From a virus, in UHGV virus genome UHGV-1370261: 20,330 bases of DNA; one strand, written 5' to 3'. Shown here piece after piece: positions 2,602 through 20,330 of this stretch. Below the pieces are notes generated by a model. The model was not told the DNA's origin and searched no databases. It worked only from the letters and a program-made list of their open reading frames with translations. Position 1 is the first letter of the stretch. Every line of letters begins with the position of its first letter. The position numbers and the translations under genes are program-made.

Positions 2602-3024
2602 ATGAAATTTGAATTTACTAATTTAGATGTTGTGTTGAATGAATTAGACAAAAAGATAAGTGATGAAGCTTTGAAGAAAAGTGTGGGCCAGGCTTGTGCT
2701 ATTGTTGAAAGAGAGGCAAAGACAAAAGCCCCAAAAGATACAGGAGCACTACGTCGCAGTATCCAATCTACAGTAAAGAAAGAAGACGGGCAGATAGTAG
2801 GAACTGTCTTTTCTGATGCTGAATATGCCCCATACGTTGAGTATGGAACCGGCCTATTCGCAGAAGATGGAGACGGCAGAAAGAAGCCTTGGTCTTATCA
2901 AGATGATAAGGGTGAGTGGCATACTACAAGTGGTATGAAACCTCACCCTTTCCTACGCCCGGCCTTCGCAGAAAATAGAGAGAAAATCAAACAAAAAATA
3001 ATGGAGGGCATTATTGATGATTGA
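2602..3024 (+). CDS. neck/tail completion protein, HK97 gp10-like family
   Basis: 140 aa with ...KTKAPKDTGALRRSI..., matching the G.L(R/K)(R/K)SI signature of the HK97 gp10 family. Conserved position in the neck module. Confidence 0.6.
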   Translation: MKFEFTNLDVVLNELDKKISDEALKKSVGQACAIVEREAKTKAPKDTGALRRSIQSTVKKEDGQIVGTVFSDAEYAPYVEYGTGLFAEDGDGRKKPWSYQDDKGEWHTTSGMKPHPFLRPAFAENREKIKQKIMEGIIDD

Positions 3025-3364
3025 TTATCACCCTACTTTACTAAATGCCCTAAAAGAAATAGGGTTGCCCGTTCATTATGAGATGACTTTACACAGTGGA
3101 CTAAAAACGCCTTGTATTAGTTATATGGAACTTACGAATTATGTTTCAACTCAAACTGATATAACTGATATAAGCATAATCCAATATCAAGTAAAGGTAT
3201 GGGCAAACGATATATCTCTAATCCAGAAGTACGCGGGCCTTGTAGATGAAAAACTACGCTCGCTGAATTGGAAAAGAGTTTCATCTAATGAGTTATATGA
3301 TAATAACTCATCTATGATACAAAAGGTTATGACATTTGAGGCAACAAGCCTCGAAACTTTATAA
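3014..3364 (+). CDS. tail terminator / tail-to-head joining protein
   Basis: 116 aa ORF overlapping the previous gene and directly upstream of the major tail protein gene, the usual position of the tail terminator. Assigned by synteny only. Confidence 0.4.
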   Translation: MMIDYHPTLLNALKEIGLPVHYEMTLHSGLKTPCISYMELTNYVSTQTDITDISIIQYQVKVWANDISLIQKYAGLVDEKLRSLNWKRVSSNELYDNNSSMIQKVMTFEATSLETL

Positions 3365-3382
3365 GTAATGGAGGAATAATAT

Positions 3383-3772
3383 ATGGCTATTCTATCAAAA
3401 GGTATCAAGCTTGCTTATAGCTCTAGCGGAACTACTTCCTATACCGACCTAACTGACCTATTAGAAATCCCTTCTCTAGGCGGTTCTATCGATAAGGTAG
3501 ATGTAACCACGCTAGCTGATGCCAGCAAAAAGTATATCAACGGCATCAAGGACTACGGCGACCTCGCCTTTAAGTTCAACTATGCCAAGGAGCAATTCAC
3601 TACTCTAAATGGCCTAACCGGCTCTATCAATTTCAAAGTAACACTACCCGACACTACTACTGCTACTTTCTCTGGTGAACCTTCTGTTTCTCTGGAAGGT
3701 GTCGGCGTTGGTGCTGCTATGACCTACACGCTCAATATCTCTCTTAATAGTGATATTGAATTTGGTGCGTAA
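3383..3772 (+). CDS. major tail protein
   Basis: 129 aa Ser/Thr/Gly-rich beta-type sequence immediately upstream of the frameshifted chaperone pair and tape measure gene. Followed by a perfect 13-bp hairpin. Strong GGAGGA RBS. Confidence 0.65.
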   Translation: MAILSKGIKLAYSSSGTTSYTDLTDLLEIPSLGGSIDKVDVTTLADASKKYINGIKDYGDLAFKFNYAKEQFTTLNGLTGSINFKVTLPDTTTATFSGEPSVSLEGVGVGAAMTYTLNISLNSDIEFGA

Positions 3773-3788
3773 ATAAACCCATATGGGG

Positions 3789-3825
3789 GTAGGGGAAAGG
3801 GCTTCTCCTTTTCCCTTTCCCCTAC
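3789..3825 (+). promoter_or_regulatory. Perfect 13-bp stem-loop (GTAGGGGAAAGGG / 11-nt loop / CCCTTTCCCCTAC) after the major tail gene, with no downstream U-tract
   Basis: Pairing 3789-3801 with 3813-3825 was verified base by base. Its sequence is related to the hairpins at 1950 and 12868. Confidence 0.6.
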
Positions 3826-3849
3826 TAAAAAATAAAGGAGAGAAAAATT

Positions 3850-4212
3850 ATGAATTATATGAATTTTGAAGCGGGTGGCAACACCTACAAACTCGTTCTT
3901 ACTACTCGTGCTATGGTTGAGTTAGAAAAGAAAATTGGTTGTAATCCTCTTGATATTCTGGTAAAGGTCCAGAGTGAAGAAAGCCTGCCCAAGGTCTATG
4001 ACATGGTAGCTATTATCTGGGCCAGCCTATTGAAGTTCAATCATGGCATCAAGTTTGATGATTGTTATGATATCTTTGATGACTACCTAAATGAAGGCCA
4101 CGCCATTACTGATTTTCTTGAAGTAATGCTTGAAATTTTCAAAGTAAGTGGTCTTATCAAAGAAGATGAAGAGGGCCAAGACCCAAACGCACAGAAGGAG
4201 GAGGAGAACTAA
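3850..4212 (+). CDS. tail assembly chaperone (gpG-like)
   Basis: 120 aa acidic protein between the major tail and tape measure genes. An overlapping -1 frame ORF continues to 4607. Confidence 0.7.
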   Translation: MNYMNFEAGGNTYKLVLTTRAMVELEKKIGCNPLDILVKVQSEESLPKVYDMVAIIWASLLKFNHGIKFDDCYDIFDDYLNEGHAITDFLEVMLEIFKVSGLIKEDEEGQDPNAQKEEEN

Positions 4213-7429: not shown

Positions 7430-7792
7430 ATGACTTATTTCAAAATAGGCAATACAGATTTTAGTAATCTGGTTAGCGGTTTGAAGTGCGGGTTTGAAGT
7501 CCTCCTTAGCGAGGACAGCGGGCGTAACGCCGCGGGAGATAATGTGGTTGATGTAGTAAATCGTAAAGATAAAATCTATGTTACCACAAGACCTATGAAT
7601 GAGGATGAGATGGCAAGTTTTCTTACTGCGGTCCAGCCTTTTGTAGTTTATATCTCTTATAGAAACCCACGCACAAAAACCATAAAATCTAATGTAAGGT
7701 GTTATATAGGAACCCCAGAACCAGAGTTCTACACCATTCAAAATGGAAAGGTTCTATATAAGCCATTACAACTAAACTTTATCGAAATGTAA
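7430..7792 (+). CDS. short distal-tail-protein-like protein (Dit N-terminal ring-domain-like)
   Basis: 120 aa immediately after the tape measure gene. The N-terminus FKIGNTDFSNL...GRNAAGDNVVDVV resembles the Sipho_tail/Dit N-terminal region (F.FDG..SSDFG...GRN....DNVVEI). It is much shorter than canonical Dit proteins. Confidence 0.4.
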   Translation: MTYFKIGNTDFSNLVSGLKCGFEVLLSEDSGRNAAGDNVVDVVNRKDKIYVTTRPMNEDEMASFLTAVQPFVVYISYRNPRTKTIKSNVRCYIGTPEPEFYTIQNGKVLYKPLQLNFIEM

Positions 7793-7810
7793 AAAAGGAG
7801 GGACAAGAAT

Positions 7811-9901
7811 ATGATAGAAACAACTCAAACTTCTCTTGATGCTCTTGTCTCTCCTTCAAGAGAGATAAAGGCCAAAATTGATTTATTTGATGGCACTACC
7901 AAGAAAGCTACTTTTACTGGTAGTGATAATATAAAGAAATTCCAAATTGAGAGAGCGGGCGAGGAAGGCAAGTTCTTTGGGTTTGGAATAGGCCAGAAGT
8001 TAGAACTGGAACTACTCGATAAAGATAGAGAACTCAATATAGTAAAAGGCAATACTTTTGACATTTATCTTACTGCTGATACTACTTATACTAAAATTTT
8101 GAGTTGTGAAGTAGATAGCATAAAGAGAGATGAAAAGACTAATAGTCTTACTATTTCCGCCCATGATACTCTTTATAAGGCCGCGGGCTATCAAGTCAAA
8201 GACCTCACTCTTACAAAGCCCTATACTATAAAACAGTTCTGCGAAGCGTGCGGGGCCAAGTTAGGAGTATCTGTAAAAGGTATAAATACCTTTACTTTAT
8301 CCTATCCTAATGGAGCTAACTTTGATGGGGCAGAAACCCTACGAGAAGCTTTGGATATGGTAGCCGAAGCCACGCAAACCATTTACTTTATGGATAGCAC
8401 TAATGCCATGGTTTTCAAAAAGCTGGATAAGGCCGGGCCCAGTCTCCTTACTATTGATAAGAACATCTACTTTGAGTATAAGAATAATGGGCCGAGAGTC
8501 CTAAAAACTATTTGCTCTACTAATGAATTAGGCGATGATGTGAGTGAAAGCGGGACTACTGGTGATGCCACGCAATTTGTAAGAGATAATGCTTTCTGGG
8601 AATTGAGAGACGATATAACAGATTTAGTCCATAATGCGGTTGTGGCAGTTGGCGGTTTATCAATCTCTCAATTTGAATGTAGATGGAGAGGTAATTTCTA
8701 CTTAGAGATTGGCGATAAAATTCAAATCCTTGGTAAAGACAATAGTTCTGCTATTACCTATCTTTTGAATGATACCTTGGTCTATAATGGCGGTCTAAAC
8801 CAAACAAGTTCTTGGAAGTATAAGGATAGTGGCGAAACCGCATCAAATCCCACTAACCTAGGTGAGGCAATAAAACAAACCTATGCGAAAGTAGATAAGC
8901 AAAACAAAGAAATAACCTTGCTGGCTTCCGAAGTAAGAACCCAAACAGAGACCATCAAAAAGACAGTAAAACAAGTTGATGTGGAATATTACCTATCTAC
9001 CAGCACTTCTACTCCTACTGGTGGCACTTGGAGCACAGAGGCCCCGCCATGGGAAGAAAACAAGTATATGTGGAGCCGTCAGAAGATAACTTATACTGAT
9101 GGAACTTTTGCTATAAGAAATGCTACTTGTATTGCTGGGGCAAAGGGGGCTGATGGAAAGCCTGGTTCCGATGGAGCACCCGGCCGGGGCATTACAAGCA
9201 TCACTACTGAATACTACATTAGCACAAGTGAAACGGAGTTGGTGGGCGGTTCTTGGAGTGAGAACCAACCAGTATGGGAAGAAGGTAAATATATCTGGAC
9301 CCGCAGTAAGATTGTGTATAATAACCCAACCTCAACTGAATATACTACCGAGGTATGCGATGCGGCTTGGAAAGAGATAAACGCCATCCAAGGCGAACAA
9401 AAAACCCTTATTACTGATGTTGCGGAATTGAAAGTCGCAAAAGATAGTATTACTGCTTCTGTATCTCAAATCACAGAAAATCAATCTGGTTTGAATAGTG
9501 CTCTTACTGACTTACAGAATGCGTTTACAGACCAAAATAAAATAAACGACGAGCAATTTGATACTCTCACTCAAAAAGTTGAGAGTAGCATGACTGCCGA
9601 CCAAGTTCATCTTGCTATTTCAACTGAACTCTCAAAAGGAGTAGATAAAGTAACCACGTCTACTGGCTTCACCTTCAACGAAGCGGGCCTAACCATCAGT
9701 AAATCTGATAGTGAAATTAGCACTAATATTGATGAAGATGGTATGAGTATTTACAAAAATAATGAAGAAGTGCTAACTGCTGATAATACAGGAGTCACAC
9801 AAATAAATGCGACCATCAAACAATACCTAATAGTTGGCAAAAATAGCCGTTTTGAGGATTATGGAAGCGATAGAACTGGTTGCTTCTGGATTGGCTCATA
9901 A
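7811..9901 (+). CDS. tail-associated / baseplate hub protein (Tal-like) with collagen-like G-X-Y stretch and duplicated ~40-aa module
   Basis: 696 aa in the position after Dit. It contains GAKGADGKPGSDGAPGRG (6 GXY triplets) flanked by two repeats of EYY(L/I)STS...GG(T/S)WS...P(P/V)WEE.KY(M/I)W(S/T)R.KI.Y. The C-terminal region is coiled-coil-like. Confidence 0.55.
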   Translation: MIETTQTSLDALVSPSREIKAKIDLFDGTTKKATFTGSDNIKKFQIERAGEEGKFFGFGIGQKLELELLDKDRELNIVKGNTFDIYLTADTTYTKILSCEVDSIKRDEKTNSLTISAHDTLYKAAGYQVKDLTLTKPYTIKQFCEACGAKLGVSVKGINTFTLSYPNGANFDGAETLREALDMVAEATQTIYFMDSTNAMVFKKLDKAGPSLLTIDKNIYFEYKNNGPRVLKTICSTNELGDDVSESGTTGDATQFVRDNAFWELRDDITDLVHNAVVAVGGLSISQFECRWRGNFYLEIGDKIQILGKDNSSAITYLLNDTLVYNGGLNQTSSWKYKDSGETASNPTNLGEAIKQTYAKVDKQNKEITLLASEVRTQTETIKKTVKQVDVEYYLSTSTSTPTGGTWSTEAPPWEENKYMWSRQKITYTDGTFAIRNATCIAGAKGADGKPGSDGAPGRGITSITTEYYISTSETELVGGSWSENQPVWEEGKYIWTRSKIVYNNPTSTEYTTEVCDAAWKEINAIQGEQKTLITDVAELKVAKDSITASVSQITENQSGLNSALTDLQNAFTDQNKINDEQFDTLTQKVESSMTADQVHLAISTELSKGVDKVTTSTGFTFNEAGLTISKSDSEISTNIDEDGMSIYKNNEEVLTADNTGVTQINATIKQYLIVGKNSRFEDYGSDRTGCFWIGS

Positions 9902-16651: not shown

Positions 16652-17002
16652 ATGGCACTAAGTCCAAAGCAAATGAAGGCTCTTGAACTTCTAACTTGTG
16701 GGAAAGGATTGACCTATAAGGTAATCGCTGAAGAAACTGGCGTTAGCCCCAAAACATTATGGAACTGGCGTTATGGAAAAGCTTTTACCGAGTTTCAAGA
16801 GGAATTGAAGAAGCTAAATGACGATAGATGGATGGCGGCGGTTGACGCTGCCAGAGAAGGAGCAATCTCGCTCTGTCGAGACGGTAATCAAAAGATGATT
16901 GAATTTGTTTTGAAGAATGAAGGTTTCAATCCTACACAGAAAGTAGAGGCCGATGTAAGTTCTACTATCACAATAAATATCGGTGAGGAAGGAGAAGAAT
17001 AA
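16652..17002 (+). CDS. terminase small subunit
   Basis: 116 aa with an N-terminal HTH-like segment (LTYKVIAEETGVSPKTLWNW). It lies immediately upstream of the large terminase gene and is first in the late operon. Confidence 0.6.
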   Translation: MALSPKQMKALELLTCGKGLTYKVIAEETGVSPKTLWNWRYGKAFTEFQEELKKLNDDRWMAAVDAAREGAISLCRDGNQKMIEFVLKNEGFNPTQKVEADVSSTITINIGEEGEE

Positions 17003-17039
17003 ATGGATTTCTCTTTTGAGGTAAAAGGTGGTGATGCTT

Positions 17040-18289
17040 ATGCCTAATATAAATCTCAATATAAAAAAGAGTGTTTTCAATGATACTTATTTTCCTCATT
17101 TACAAGACTACTCAAAGCGATATGAGATTTATTACGGCGGATAGGAGCCGGCTCGGGCAAAAGCGTTTTCCTAACTCAAAAGCTTCTAATCAAAGCTATG
17201 GCCCGACGCCGTAAAGTTTTGGTTATTCGTAAATTTGCTACAACTCTAAAAGATAGTGTATTTCAACTCTTTATAGATACTCTAAAACAATGGAATCTCT
17301 ATTCTTACTGTAAGATAAACCTTTCTACTTATACAATAACTCTTCCTAATGAGAGTATTATCCTATTCAAAGGATTGGATAACGAAGAAAAGATAAAGTC
17401 GATAGCAGGAATTACTGATATATGGTGTGAAGAAGCAACAGAACTTACAGAGGATGAGTTCACGCAATTAGACCTACGTTTGAGAGCAAAGGAGCCCGAC
17501 CTTCAGGCGTTCGCAAGCTTCAATCCTGTGTCTCGAGCCAATTGGGTTTTCAAGAAGTGGTTTGCCGAAGACGCAATAGTAAATCCCAACAATACAATGA
17601 TACTCAAAACCACTTATAAGGACAATAAGTTTTTGCCAAAAGAATATACCGATGCTTTGGAGGAGAAGGCCCGCACCAATCCCACTTATTATCGTATCTA
17701 CGCATTAGGAGAGTTTTGTTCTCTCGATAAACTTATTTTCAATAACTGGAAAGTAGAAGAATTCAATCACAACGACATAAAGGGCCAACTAATCGTAGGT
17801 CTGGATTTTGGCTTCTCAAATGACCCCTCGGTGGTCATCGCGAGTATTGTCGATGAAAACACGAACACTATATACATTTTCAAGACCTGGGGTGATACCA
17901 ACAAAACCAATGATGATTTGGCCTCAATTATAACTTCTCTGGGCTTTGCTAAATCTCAAATAAAAGCAGATTGTAGTGAACCCAAATCAATCGAAGAACT
18001 AAAAAGAAAAGGTATAACTCGAATATCTGCCTGCTCCAAAGGAAAAGACAGTATTCTCTATGGTATCCAAACCTTACAACAATACCAAATCATCGTTCAT
18101 CCATCCTGCGAGGGCATTATAACAGAGTTTGAGAATTATAGCTGGCAGAAAGATAAAAAGACTGGTGAGTATCTAAACCAGCCTATTGATAGTTTCAACC
18201 ACTATATAGATGCTCTACGTTATTCAATCCAAATAATTGATAAATCAAAAAAGCTCAAATCTTTTAGTAGAAATGGATTAGGCTTATAA
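17040..18289 (+). CDS. Terminase large subunit, PBSX family. The reading frame is interrupted at 17142: 34 codons end in TAG, then the frame shifts by +2 into the Walker A box.
   Basis: Frame 0 from ATG 17040 reads MPNINLNIKKSVFNDTYFPHLQDYSKRYEIYYGG*, the classic PBSX-family terL N-terminus up to the YGG that normally precedes the P-loop. The frame-2 ORF (track 17198..18289, actually open from 17126) then reads (I)GAGSGKSVFLTQKLL..., with Walker A GAGSGKS, Walker B DIWCEEATE, and nuclease motifs VGLDFGFSNDPS / NHYIDALRY. Deleting the 5 nt TAGGA (17142-17146) yields YYGGAGSGKS in one frame. Confidence 0.8.
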
Positions 18290-18299
18290 GGAGGAAAGT

Positions 18300-18575
18300 A
18301 TGGCTTTAGAACTACTAGGTAACGCAATTCGCCTTACTAATGGCGACAATACACCAATCTCCAAAGTTATCAAAGATAGCGACGGCGTGCCTATCACAAC
18401 CGGTGATATGAAACTAATTATCCCCGATATTGGTTTATCTATTACCGGAATTTATGAAAATGGTGTATGGAGTTTTGAAATTCCCAGTAATCCTAATATC
18501 AAAGGGCGGCATATGTATCTCTTTGAATATAATGGAACTTATTTGGAATTTGAGGCTCCTATTTATTTTGAGTGA
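18300..18575 (+). CDS. hypothetical protein between terL and portal
   Basis: 91 aa with a GGAGG RBS. No recognisable motif. Confidence 0.4.
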   Translation: MALELLGNAIRLTNGDNTPISKVIKDSDGVPITTGDMKLIIPDIGLSITGIYENGVWSFEIPSNPNIKGRHMYLFEYNGTYLEFEAPIYFE

Positions 18576-18588
18576 GGTGAGATAAATA

Positions 18589-19905
18589 ATGTTTTATATA
18601 AATAAAGAAGCTCCCCTAACCGATGCTCTGCTTCATAAGCTAATAAATCAATTCCAAACCACAGAACTTCCCAAGCTAAAGAGGTGGGGCGACTACTACA
18701 ACGGTATTCAAAAAATCCTAAACAAATCTTATAGCGACCCAACAAAAGAATGTAATCATATCATTACTAATATGTGTAAGACTATTGTTGATACATACGC
18801 GGGCTACATTTGTGGTAAGCCAATCACCTACACAAGTAATAGTGATATTAGTGATGTTCAAAGTGTCATCAACTATAATGATAGTTCTGCCGAGGATTAT
18901 GAGTGGCTATCTAATAGTCTTATCTACTCCGTAGGTTATGAACTCTATTGGATTGATGCTTACTCCCAAGTCAGATATTCCCAAATTAGCCCTCTATGCG
19001 GTTTCCCTATCTACGACAATAGCCTTGACCAAGAACTCTTATACTTTGTTAGATGGTATAAGGAAGATAGTTTCAATGATAATGACAATTACTTTGTTGA
19101 GGTATATGATAAGTTCTCCATCAAAGTCTATAAGAGCATCGGGCTAAATGGTGCTTTCACTCCTGTTGAGGAAAAGGCTCACTACTTCAAAGATGTTCCT
19201 GTGTCTGTATTCTGGCTCAATACCCAAGAGCAAAATATCTTCAATTCTATTATTACTCTCCAAGACGCCTATAATGACCTACAAAGTGGCGAAATTGATA
19301 GCTTCAATGCCTGGGTAGATAGTTATCTCGTTCTTACTAACTGTGATGCCGGCGAGGATGAGTTGAGGGTTATGAAGGAGAACCGCACAATGATATTACC
19401 AGAAGGTTCAACTGCTACTTTCCTTACGAAGAATGTTAGTGATACTCAAATCTCTAATATGCTTGAAAATATCCGTAAGAACATCTATAAGATTACTGCT
19501 TGCCCGGACACATCAGACGAGGTCTTTATGGCCCAATCTGGTGAGGCTATCAAATGGAAGCTAACTGGCTTTGAGAACGCCGCGGCGGGCATCGTGGCAA
19601 AGATGACAAAAGCAGTTCAAAAGCGGATTGAACTCATCTGTAATATTCTCAATCTAAAAGCAACTGATGCTATCTGGCGGGATATCGATATTCAATTCAC
19701 TCGTAATCTACCTACTAACAATACTGAACTCATTAGTCTGGTTCAAAATCTACAAGGTATTGTATCAAGTGAAACTCTATTGTCTCTCTTACCTTTTGTA
19801 AAGGACACAACCGCAGAAATGGAAAAACTCAATCAAGAGAAGCAAGCCAATATGGCCCTCTATAGTTTTGGGCTGACTACGGACGAGGAGACTGATGTCG
19901 AATGA
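18589..19905 (+). CDS. portal protein (SPP1 gp6-like)
   Basis: 438 aa in the position after terL. The N-terminal region (...LKRWGDYYNGIQ...ITNMCKTIVDTYAGYICGKPITY...) is consistent with the SPP1-type portal family. The stop overlaps the next start (ATGA). Confidence 0.7.
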   Translation: MFYINKEAPLTDALLHKLINQFQTTELPKLKRWGDYYNGIQKILNKSYSDPTKECNHIITNMCKTIVDTYAGYICGKPITYTSNSDISDVQSVINYNDSSAEDYEWLSNSLIYSVGYELYWIDAYSQVRYSQISPLCGFPIYDNSLDQELLYFVRWYKEDSFNDNDNYFVEVYDKFSIKVYKSIGLNGAFTPVEEKAHYFKDVPVSVFWLNTQEQNIFNSIITLQDAYNDLQSGEIDSFNAWVDSYLVLTNCDAGEDELRVMKENRTMILPEGSTATFLTKNVSDTQISNMLENIRKNIYKITACPDTSDEVFMAQSGEAIKWKLTGFENAAAGIVAKMTKAVQKRIELICNILNLKATDAIWRDIDIQFTRNLPTNNTELISLVQNLQGIVSSETLLSLLPFVKDTTAEMEKLNQEKQANMALYSFGLTTDEETDVE

Positions 19906-20330
19906 ATTACTGGGCCAAAAGACTCATTGATGAACAAAATAAAATTAGTGATAGAACAATCGCAGAAGCCCAGGCCCAACTACGAAAATATTACTTGACT
20001 GCTTCAAGAACTATTATCAAAGAGTTTGAATCGCTTTATGAGAAAGTATTGAGAGCAATAGCAGAAGGTAAAGAAATCACGCCCGCTTGGCTCTATACTA
20101 TGGATAAGTATTGGGAACTACAAGCTCAACTCAAATCAACTCTTACCAGTCTGGGAGAAAAAGAACATAAACTCTTATCAAAAAAATTCGAGAAAGAATA
20201 TAAAGATATCTATAACTCAATTCCTTTGAAATCCGATAAAATGTTCACCACTTTGGGCGAAACCGCGAAGTCAATCGTAAATCGGCCCTGGACACCAGAC
20301 GGAATTCATTTTTCTCAACGCATATGGAAG
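19902..20330 (+). CDS. Head morphogenesis protein (SPP1 gp7 / Mu F family), N-terminal part. The ORF runs off the window end exactly at a codon boundary.
   Basis: 143 codons ending ...NRPWTPDGIHFSQRIWK, the family's W..DG..FS.RIW motif. It continues seamlessly into the ORF at 1..381 if the ends are joined. Confidence 0.75.
   Translation, partial: MNYWAKRLIDEQNKISDRTIAEAQAQLRKYYLTASRTIIKEFESLYEKVLRAIAEGKEITPAWLYTMDKYWELQAQLKSTLTSLGEKEHKLLSKKFEKEYKDIYNSIPLKSDKMFTTLGETAKSIVNRPWTPDGIHFSQRIWK

Follow-up and report, generated by a model that had tools for sequence, protein, structure and literature searches.

A stop codon inside the Walker A coding sequence of a phage large terminase gene: a candidate for short, recurrent translational bypassing

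Translational bypassing outside mitochondria has so far been known from T4 gene 60 with its homologues and from the Hau3 terminase candidates, and a December 2024 preprint names as bypassing cases only gene 60, Hau3 and yeast mitochondria. The gene 60 bypass follows the scheme GGA-UAG...GGA (reviewed in PMC5009743), while +5 and +6 hops over a stop codon to a matched codon were obtained in synthetic constructs (Weiss, Dunn, Atkins and Gesteland 1987, reviewed in PMC5009743). According to the same 2016 review, short natural counterparts of gene 60 with matched codons have "long been presumed", no natural in-frame stop-hop being known. Here, we analysed the large terminase gene (terL) of the virus genome UHGV-1370261, whose whole stretch of 20,330 nucleotides (nt) is referred to as the window. 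This gene is broken by a stop codon within the coding sequence of the Walker A box, and it is very probably expressed via a short programmed translational bypass, in which a stop-stimulated hop of the peptidyl-tRNA would yield YYGG-AGSGKS.

In frame 0, terL reads through TAT TAC GGC GGA (17139-17141) into TAG (17142-17144). The product of this first open reading frame (ORF1), MPNINLNIKKSVFNDTYFPHLQDYSKRYEIYYGG, is homologous to residues 1-34 of intact relatives. The Walker A box is encoded in the +2 frame as GGA (17144-17146) GCC GGC TCG GGC AAA AGC, i.e., G-AGSGKS, and this frame remains open until 18287-18289. No ATG, GTG or TTG is present in the +2 frame between TGA 17123-17125 and ATG 17198, the latter being located 3' of the Walker A box; because this TGA closes the +2 frame and ATG 17198 is the first start codon, the frame change is confined to 17126-17144. 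The features of the locus are as follows.

17026-17034, plus strand: Shine-Dalgarno-like sequence AGGTGGTGA, 5 nt ahead of the terL start codon, with a presumed function as such
17040, plus strand: ATG start codon of terL, frame 0 extending to TAG 17142-17144
17040-17141, plus strand: terL ORF1, 34 codons ending in RYEIYYGG, encoding the N-terminus and the first two P-loop Gly residues
17123-17125, plus strand: TGA in the +2/-1 frame, the 5' limit of a possible frame change
17139-17141, plus strand: GGA (Gly34), the putative take-off codon, invariant in all interrupted alleles of the window clade
17142-17144, plus strand: TAG directly 3' of the take-off codon
17142-17146, plus strand: TAGGA, the 5 nt giving no residue, missing in intact relatives
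17144-17146, plus strand: GGA, the putative landing codon, 5 nt 3' of the take-off codon and sharing the G of TAG
17147-17200, plus strand: Walker A segment of 18 codons without a start codon, in the +2 frame and 5' of the first ATG (17198)
17147-18289, plus strand: terL ORF2, 380 codons from the resume codon GCC (AGSGKS...), encoding the ATPase and the RNase-H-like nuclease, stop codon at 18287-18289

The break in terL, which had been reported in an earlier note on this DNA, is real. Its description of frame 0 ending in RYEIYYGG before TAG, with a Walker A box in the +2 frame devoid of a start of its own, was confirmed by the sequence, as was the layout of the junction; a small correction concerns the landing GGA, which occupies 17144-17146 with its first G being the last base of TAG. 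The landing codon is GGA in most window-clade alleles and GGG, of the same tRNA class, in L395 (L numbers denote loci of relatives). The Shine-Dalgarno-like motif is also found ahead of terL in L021 and L059. TAG does not serve as terminator in any of the 24 long ORFs of the window (TAA in 20, TGA in 4), the sole TAG stop being that of terL ORF1.

Following the proposed mechanism, the ribosome would decode 34 codons until the peptidyl-tRNA-Gly is placed on GGA 17139-17141 in the P site and the slowly decoded TAG (17142-17144) fills the A site. The peptidyl-tRNA would then unpair, the mRNA would slide by 5 nt, the tRNA would re-pair with GGA 17144-17146 and decoding would restart at GCC 17147, resulting in a PBSX-type large terminase of 414 amino acids (aa) with the predicted junction peptide YYGGAGSGK (YEIYYGGAGSGK). 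Terminating ribosomes would release only the 34-aa peptide. In the other lineages described below, a peptidyl-tRNA-Gly or -Ala would re-pair 5, 6 or 8 nt downstream and proceed to the next codon. What the window offers for such a stop-hop is a stop codon directly 3' of the take-off codon and a cognate landing codon, GGA 17144-17146, followed by the resume codon GCC.

The closest mechanistic match to the putative hop in the window terL is the synthetic +5/+6 stop-hop. Both share matched or synonymous codons around a stop codon, a very short distance (here +5, +6 and +8), the lack of an elaborate stimulatory structure and an A-site stop codon as a slow-to-decode trigger, and two of the junctions found here, GGT TAA GGT and GCG TAG GCT, are exactly of the kind where '9 nt specify one amino acid'. 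The synthetic hops differ in that they were of low efficiency and took place in engineered lacZ constructs, whereas the present layout occurs naturally, in an essential gene of a phage, and is kept under selection and found in many lineages.

T4 gene 60 has in common with the window site the take-off of peptidyl-tRNA-Gly from GGA, a UAG directly 3' of it and a matching GGA for landing; moreover, in both cases two ORFs are fused into one protein, which is a phage DNA-handling, ATPase-type enzyme. In contrast to the 2-5 nt lying between the codons here, the gap of gene 60 measures 50 nt, and bypassing requires the nascent-peptide signal KKYKLQNNVRRSIKSSS, a take-off stem-loop, a 5' stem-loop and a Shine-Dalgarno-like element. 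Gene 60 is also part of the mobE homing-endonuclease cassette, and it has no sequence homology with the window terL. The ORF1 product of the window bears no resemblance to KKYKLQNNVRRSIKSSS, no significant structure corresponding to the take-off stem-loop was detected at the window site (z = +0.7), no endonuclease domain adjoins the window terL, and the neighbours of interrupted and intact alleles revealed no consistent difference. Because the 50-nt gap, the nascent-peptide signal, the stem-loops and the linkage to mobE are absent, the window site is not a homologue of gene 60. The label "gene-60-like" given in the earlier note thus holds for the core event (GGA-UAG-GGA) and not for the nascent-peptide signal, the 50-nt gap and the stem-loops.

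In the terminase of Streptomyces phage Hau3, bypassing of 10-nt inserts was confirmed by mass spectrometry in E. coli, and three genes are known, those of Hau3 and of two prophages including StrepC.1, with terL inserts of 7-10 nt after a rare UUA sense codon (PMC10732093). As in the window, these are short, frame-disrupting terL inserts whose flanks equal the uninterrupted sequence of relatives, the take-off follows a Gly codon (KGWG), and the junction was argued to be too conserved for extra residues. They differ in the trigger, which is the tRNA-limited UUA, proposed as a sensor of the developmental state of the host, whereas the A-site codon of the window is a stop codon. Furthermore, the Hau3 inserts are found in a different, actinophage terminase, elsewhere in the gene and without a sequence link, in contrast to the 18 types found here, all of which are located at the P-loop. 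Finally, the byps of Magnusiomyces capitatus are longer inserts in yeast mitochondrial mRNAs (PMC5009743). They resemble the present case in being many short inserts in coding sequences that are skipped by the ribosome between matched take-off and landing codons. With a length of 27-55 nt, byps are GC-rich and form hairpins. This structure and a mobility signature set them apart, neither being seen at the window site.

Deletion of TAGGA from the window terL, which had been predicted to restore the consensus YYGG-AGSGKS, did so and gave a full-length family member of 414 aa. This hop-joined protein matched the Pfam family Terminase_3 with 215-217 bits (residues 26-223 against profile positions 2-201 of 201) and Terminase_3C, the RNase-H-like nuclease domain, with 96 bits over residues 254-396. 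It is therefore covered end to end by the two domains of a PBSX-type large terminase, P-loop included, and the window gene differs from that family in being discontinuous inside the Walker A coding sequence. The hop-joined P-loop aligned without a gap to that of the solved Sf6 gp2 terminase (4IDH), RYEIYYGGAGSGKS against RYKVAKGGRGSGKS, and the terminase large subunit nuclease domain 2WBN matched residues 249-396. Intact relatives with 91-97% identity are mostly 414 aa long (413-417) and read YYGGAGSGKS; their junctions without TAGGA are GGC GGG GCC (L001), GGC GGA GCG (L043) and GGC GGA GCA (L047). A second copy of terL was sought in the window genome, and none was found.

The junction GGCGGATAGGAGC was identical in contigs of more than 12 samples from several assemblers (Logan, ENA SPAdes/MEGAHIT-style, JGI), with diverged flanks. 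The exact 34-aa ORF1 product was present in 73 blocks of a public assembly index, 15 of the 73 containing contigs of 20-50 kb. A protein search yielded three clusters of 363-aa proteins, corresponding to the ORF from ATG 17198, with 14, 7 and 3 members; their contigs originate from different samples and assemblers, and all of them show the 34-aa ORF followed by the 363-aa ORF, with GGCGGATAGGAGC at the break. Since many independent assemblies share these 5 nt, the break in terL is far beyond chance. When the DNA of the window junction was used as a search pattern, IMG/VR, the JGI metagenomes and the GTDB genomes gave no match, so that the window clade is visible only in the Logan/ENA/JGI assembly index.

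Seven distinct interrupted alleles of the window clade keep GGA-TAG-GA exactly, at a synonymous divergence (dS) of 0.29-0.50 and a non-synonymous divergence (dN) of 0.02-0.05, resulting in dN/dS values of 0.07-0.14; for ORF2 among interrupted alleles, dN/dS was 0.06-0.13. Within the 34 codons of ORF1, 9 variable codons were synonymous only and 4 were amino-acid-changing. The 18 start-less codons (35-52) contained 6 codons with synonymous variation only and 2 with conservative changes, the variable sites being distributed over the codon positions as 3/0/5. From this mostly synonymous variation it follows that ribosomes read the start-less Walker A segment in the +2 frame. Purifying selection on this segment in turn means that terL is neither a pseudogene nor a gene whose protein begins at ATG 17198.

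Relatives of the window terL were found by homology- and pattern-based scans and filtered by tblastn; loose DNA patterns gave mostly chance matches. The TerL proteins of interrupted relatives were 47-70% identical to that of the window, and those of the L441/L519 and L459 lineages were ~40% identical to other family members. Within the P-loop GGAGSGKS, all interruptions affected one of two neighbouring codons, that for Gly (G4) or that for Ala (A5). The following 18 junction types were obtained, written as take-off codon, skipped nucleotides and landing codon, with the hop distance in front.

+5: GGA, TA, GGA (window clade)
+5: GGA, TA, GGG (L395)
+5: GGT, TA, GGC (L303)
+5: GGT, TA, GGT (L345/L357)
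+5: GCC, TA, GCT (L441/L519)
+5: GCT, TA, GCT (L459)
+8: GGC, TAAAT, GGT (L021)
+8: GGC, TAACT, GGT (L291)
+8: GGT, TAAAT, GGT (L294)
+8: GGC, TAAAT, GGC (L370)
+8: GGA, TGACA, GGA (L059, L308, L330)
+8: GGT, TGACA, GGT (L063, L315)
+8: GCC, TGAAC, GCC (L481)
+6, in frame: GGT, TAA, GGT (L329)
+6, in frame: GCG, TAG, GCT (L455)
+6, in frame: GGA, TGA, CGA (L300, L316, L376)
+6, in frame: GGA, TAG, CGA (L305)
+6, in frame: GGA, TAG, AGA (L400)

In 18 of 18 types, a stop codon lies immediately 3' of the take-off codon, with TAG, TAA and TGA all being represented, and skipping of the interval always gives the family consensus ...GG-AGSGKS or ...GGA-GSGKS. A landing codon of the same tRNA class (GGA/GGG, GGY, GCY, or GCG to GCU via a U34 tRNA-Ala) is located 5, 6 or 8 nt downstream in 15 of the 18 types; the remaining three have NGA as landing codon, with GGA always being the take-off codon and 2 of 3 pairs being formed. 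Considering the Gly types with a GGN landing codon, 11 of 11 pair GGA/GGG with GGA/GGG or GGY with GGY. Based on the Gly codon usage of the window, the chance of a class match is 0.56 per pair, which amounts to 0.002 for 11 types and 0.03 for 6 independent lineages. TAG is the stop codon of every +5 type, since its G doubles as the first base of the GGN or GCN on which the tRNA would land. Interrupted genes occupy at least 7 separate positions in the TerL tree among intact relatives.

A change of the take-off codon together with the landing codon is evident from the comparison of L059 and L063, which belong to one lineage and have diverged to a dS of 1.34 with a dN of 0.043 (dN/dS 0.03); their ORF1 sequences differ by 12 synonymous changes and 1 non-synonymous change. 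The skipped TGACA is identical in both (neutral expectation ~0.0075), and both the take-off and the landing codon have changed, from GGA..GGA to GGT..GGT. This is what the required re-pairing of the same peptidyl-tRNA predicts, and models of frameshifting and re-initiation do not. In a sister lineage, the site has shifted to the Ala codon in two forms, GCG TAG GCT (L455) and GCC TGAAC GCC (L481), showing that the gap sequence turns over while the logic stays. The comparison with relatives, which the earlier note had proposed for deciding on a hop, supports this option more strongly than expected, with 18 types, 15 of them class-matched, and one co-change. Beyond the window, the terL P-loop of small gut Firmicute phages has probably gained stop-containing inserts of 5, 6 or 8 nt after Gly or Ala repeatedly, which would be decoded by hopping to cognate codons, would include the first natural in-frame cases (9 nt for one residue) and would be kept by selection for throttling of TerL or for nuclease immunity.

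Among the alternatives, a programmed -1 (equivalent to +2) frameshift at GGC GGA while the stop codon occupies the A site ('shifty stop') would give YYGG-IG-AGSGKS, with the predicted junction peptide YYGGIGAGSGK (YEIYYGGIGAGSGK) and two extra residues in the P-loop. Its frame relation fits, +5 being equivalent to -1, and a stop codon in the A site is a known stimulator of frameshifting (Weiss et al. 1987, cited in PMC5009743). The frameshift product still reaches 210.6 bits on Terminase_3, which is 6.7 bits below the 217.3 bits of the hop product, compared to 183.6 bits for the product starting at ATG 17198 and lacking the P-loop. We consider this explanation improbable, since a slippery heptamer X XXY YYZ is absent from 17126-17144 (GAG ATT TAT TAC GGC GGA TAG), P-site re-pairing would take place on CGG or AGG, where a tRNA leaving GGA would form 2 of 3 pairs and one leaving GGY 1 of 3, and Ile, Asn or Thr would replace the invariant first Gly of the P-loop. 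Frameshifting leaves both the third-base match and the co-change of take-off and landing codons unexplained and fails for the in-frame junctions GGT TAA GGT and GCG TAG GCT; because some junctions are in frame, it cannot explain the whole set. Synthesis of two polypeptides, where termination at TAG is followed by re-initiation in the +2 frame, would provide the 34-aa peptide and a protein starting just before GAGSGKS. The TGACA lineage has a layout suited to this, which there speaks against a hop, as ATG (L059) or TTG (L063) overlaps the stop codon (GGATGA, GGTTGA) in the classic manner of stop-start coupling. The corresponding triplet of the window is ATA, and other lineages have CTA, TTA or none, thus no usual start codon; the in-frame types are without any start codon, and re-initiation would part the conserved beta-strand RYEIYYGG from its P-loop, making this a very improbable route. 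For the three in-frame types landing on NGA, stop codon readthrough with the product GG-X-R-AGSGKS is a real alternative to a near-cognate +6 hop. Reassignment of the stop codon was rejected, because with TAG as a sense codon translation stays in frame 0 and ends 10 codons later, short of the Walker A box, and because the ORFs are intact under code 11.

A pseudogene, with a lesion that disables the gene of a decaying or defective element, would account for a gene that is split before Walker A with a second part lacking a start codon. It would explain neither the purifying selection on both parts and on the start-less segment (dN/dS 0.03-0.14, not near 1) nor why lesions found at no fewer than 7 positions of the tree hit just two neighbouring codons instead of random sites, and outside terL the genome is intact and compact. 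This renders decay highly unlikely, and the inactivating lesion considered in the earlier note is excluded for practical purposes by purifying selection on both halves at a dS of 0.3-0.5 (1.34 in the sister lineage). Alternatively, the interrupted allele could be an 'off' state, with function being regained through a slipped-strand deletion of 5 nt between the GGA repeats, through recombination with intact alleles or through a helper TerL. The take-off and landing codons are indeed 3-nt direct repeats that could mediate a precise deletion, and deletion-like intact alleles exist among the interrupted ones (L043; L001 versus L395). Set against this, interrupted alleles have diverged to a dS of 0.3-0.5 (TGACA lineage 1.34) at a dN/dS of ~0.03-0.14, which an untranslated gene would not do; imperfect repeats (GGC..GGT, GGT..GGC, GGA..GGG, GCC..GCT, GCG..GCT) stay within the tRNA class; and complete circular interrupted genomes represent the consensus assembly in many samples. 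Slippage rates at a repeat of 3 nt are very low, which also counts against reversion. As the explanation of the interrupted gene, an 'off' state is thus improbable, although reversion at the DNA level between the 3-nt repeats may well occur. An artefact of assembly or sequencing is favoured only by the prior suspicion of indels in metagenome assemblies, and its probability is negligible: the identical 5-nt insert is found across Logan, ENA and JGI assemblies of different samples with diverged flanks, and we know of no systematic error that generates a 5-nt non-homopolymer insertion. The assembly error raised in the earlier note is excluded by the more than 12 samples, the several assemblers and the re-assembly of the whole genome as a circle.

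Several observations weigh against the hop. Un-stimulated stop-hops in E. coli have an efficiency of ~1% or less. A conserved RNA structure was not found in 17100-17200, where the fold was no better than that of shuffled sequences (z = +0.7), and a 4-bp stem CGGC/GCCG enclosing GGAUAGGA is disrupted in GCG alleles. ORF1 contains no distinctive nascent-peptide signal; since it is an ordinary TerL N-terminus, any contribution of the nascent peptide ...RYEIYYGG would already be available in intact relatives. In three junction types, the landing codon is NGA, which is only near-cognate and which readthrough could decode, and the tRNA-class matches were judged from codons. Most of the extra lineages were retrieved with patterns demanding a stop codon after TAY GGN GGN, so that there is an ascertainment bias and the adjacency of the stop codon is partly built in. 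This adjacency was not imposed beforehand on the window clade and L021, both retrieved through protein similarity, nor in a scan whose sole requirement was that 1-9 nt be inserted at the site, and the landing codon was never fixed in any search pattern. Among the matches listed in the stop-free scan, the TerL loci comprised 37 plain one-codon sense insertions (sub-families with YGG-S/G/A-AGSGKS), the rest being stop-hop layouts; two apparent exceptions turned out to be out-of-frame chance matches. Lastly, interrupted and intact alleles are interleaved in the TerL tree, which suggests recombination or repeated gain and loss and blurs the count of independent origins. As regards a Shine-Dalgarno-like stimulator, GGAGG-like strings are intrinsic to Gly-Gly codons and also occur in intact relatives, and this candidate was dismissed as not informative.

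Searches of the literature did not reveal any report of hopping over a stop codon or of bypassing in a terL gene of the Terminase_3 type or in a Walker A box. Judged from its sequence, the window site is best regarded as a variant of translational bypassing that is new, natural and recurrent. If true, it would represent the first natural short stop-hops, so far found only in synthetic constructs, and would provide a natural series of sites with three stop codons, three hop distances, Gly and Ala take-offs, and cognate as well as near-cognate landings. Matched interrupted and intact alleles in near-identical genomes constitute an allelic series for studying what makes a minimal hop efficient. 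In practical terms, gene callers split such a terL into a 34-aa ORF and an N-terminally truncated ORF, as seen from the 363-aa proteins in public collections, phages with a split terL risk being scored as defective, and other 'broken' P-loop genes in viromes may be alike.

We infer the hop, its efficiency and its purpose. The insert could possibly set a low level of TerL; another possible role, by analogy with the proposal for T4 gene 60 and mobE, would be to shield the conserved P-loop DNA from a site-specific nuclease. Homing elements appear to be active in this phage group, as indicated by probable introns of the L376 lineage and an HNH gene of L042 (both described below), which bears only loosely on the nuclease idea.

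Across the junctions, hop distances were +5, +6 and +8 only; +7 was never found, though it was allowed by the search patterns. Some intact alleles resemble exact 5-nt deletions of interrupted ones, or the reverse: GGA GCG of L043 corresponds to GGA TAGGA GCG of L036, L037 and L042, and GGC GGG GCC of L001 resembles the exact deletion product of GGA TA GGG GCC in L395. The interleaving of alleles suggests repeated gain or loss, or recombination.

Individual relatives showed further peculiarities. L400 (SRR33022569, 2094-2112), which lies inside the window clade, reads GGA TAG AGA GCT and has one extra A compared to window positions 17133-17149. This places both ORFs in frame with an internal TAG (YGG*RAGSGKS), a layout that is also found at the protein level in two unrelated lineages (GGA TAG CGA and GGA TGA CGA). 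In L303 (ERZ827423 NODE-10015, coverage 1.8; 2723-3947), a further frame change occurs downstream in terL, resulting in three tblastn pieces in three frames; either an error due to low coverage or genuine decay of this copy may underlie it, and L303 is weak evidence. L345 (OCTX011771641.1, ~1000-2260) and L357 (AUXO014986636.1) contain in-frame stop codons at conserved Trp positions of relatives (GITDA*MEEA, RNYS*KKDK). Assuming that these stop codons are TGA, this suggests a host with TGA as Trp (code 4), under which TAG, the stop codon of their hop site, is still a stop codon.

The terL gene of L376, from a Clostridium sp. metagenome-assembled genome (MAG; JALFMW010000050.1), contains stop-rich insertions of ~270 nt (~950-1226) and ~790 nt (~1873-2663), and L300 and L316 have a stop-rich insertion at the site equivalent to the first of these. 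The insertions of this lineage lie in the ATPase and nuclease coding regions, coding resumes in frame after each, and they are probably self-splicing introns. The closest cultured phages in GenBank are Clostridium phages (49-63% identity), with terL being intact. The split terL of Bacillus phage BC-6 (L393, OQ259508.1, 601-1864) was discarded, as it is broken at residue ~118 and unrelated to the P-loop site. It is annotated as two coding sequences, while terL of the sister phage BC-7 is intact, and the split could stem from a sequencing error or represent an interruption of another kind. A search with the pattern variant GG-R-GSGK retrieved no interrupted terminase, and L423, L463, L335 and L311 proved to be chance pattern matches.

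The window corresponds to a circular genome of 20,330 bp, i.e., the JGI contig 3300045988 Ga0495776_011002 minus a terminal repeat of 87 nt. The junction of the circle is spanned with 1 mismatch by the ENA contigs ERZ1304297 (20,385 bp) and ERZ28595695 (20,417 bp), the latter being as long as the JGI contig and thus possibly the same assembly. A gene for a Mu-F-like head morphogenesis protein (269 aa in relatives) appears to cross the ends of the window (19902-20330, then 1-381), which is consistent with a linearised circular genome.

All window genes are on the plus strand and form a compact siphovirus set. The head and tail genes encode a DUF4355 scaffold protein, capsid, connector proteins, tail tube, tape-measure protein and DUF859/Gp10_C distal tail proteins; in addition, there are genes for an Amidase_3-SPOR lysin, an EcoRI-like methylase, a helix-turn-helix (HTH) small terminase, TerL, an SPP1-type portal and the Mu-F-like protein. 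The genome was found to be compact and intact, in line with the earlier impression that nothing besides terL is broken. Upstream of terL, the small terminase gene (terS) was located:

16652-17002, plus strand: small terminase candidate, 116 aa, with HTH (Pfam HTH_Tnp_1_2, 3e-11), directly 5' of terL

This candidate keeps its position 5' of terL in relatives. Downstream of terL, the window has a 91-aa ORF (18300-18575), followed by the portal gene. Neither a tRNA gene nor a suppressor is encoded in the window. Strong Shine-Dalgarno-like sequences and the type of lysin suggest a Firmicute host; related interrupted contigs were binned into a Christensenellaceae MAG and a Clostridium MAG, one in each, binning of phage contigs being weak evidence. 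Variable ORFs of 327-520 aa, absent in the window, are located between terL and the portal gene in L041, L042, L043, L047, L049 and L395-L403, with one matching Peptidase_G2 and one a head fibre. L042 additionally carries an ORF for a NUMOD4/HNH_3 endonuclease (7692-8216) between the genes for the Mu-F-like protein and the scaffold protein.

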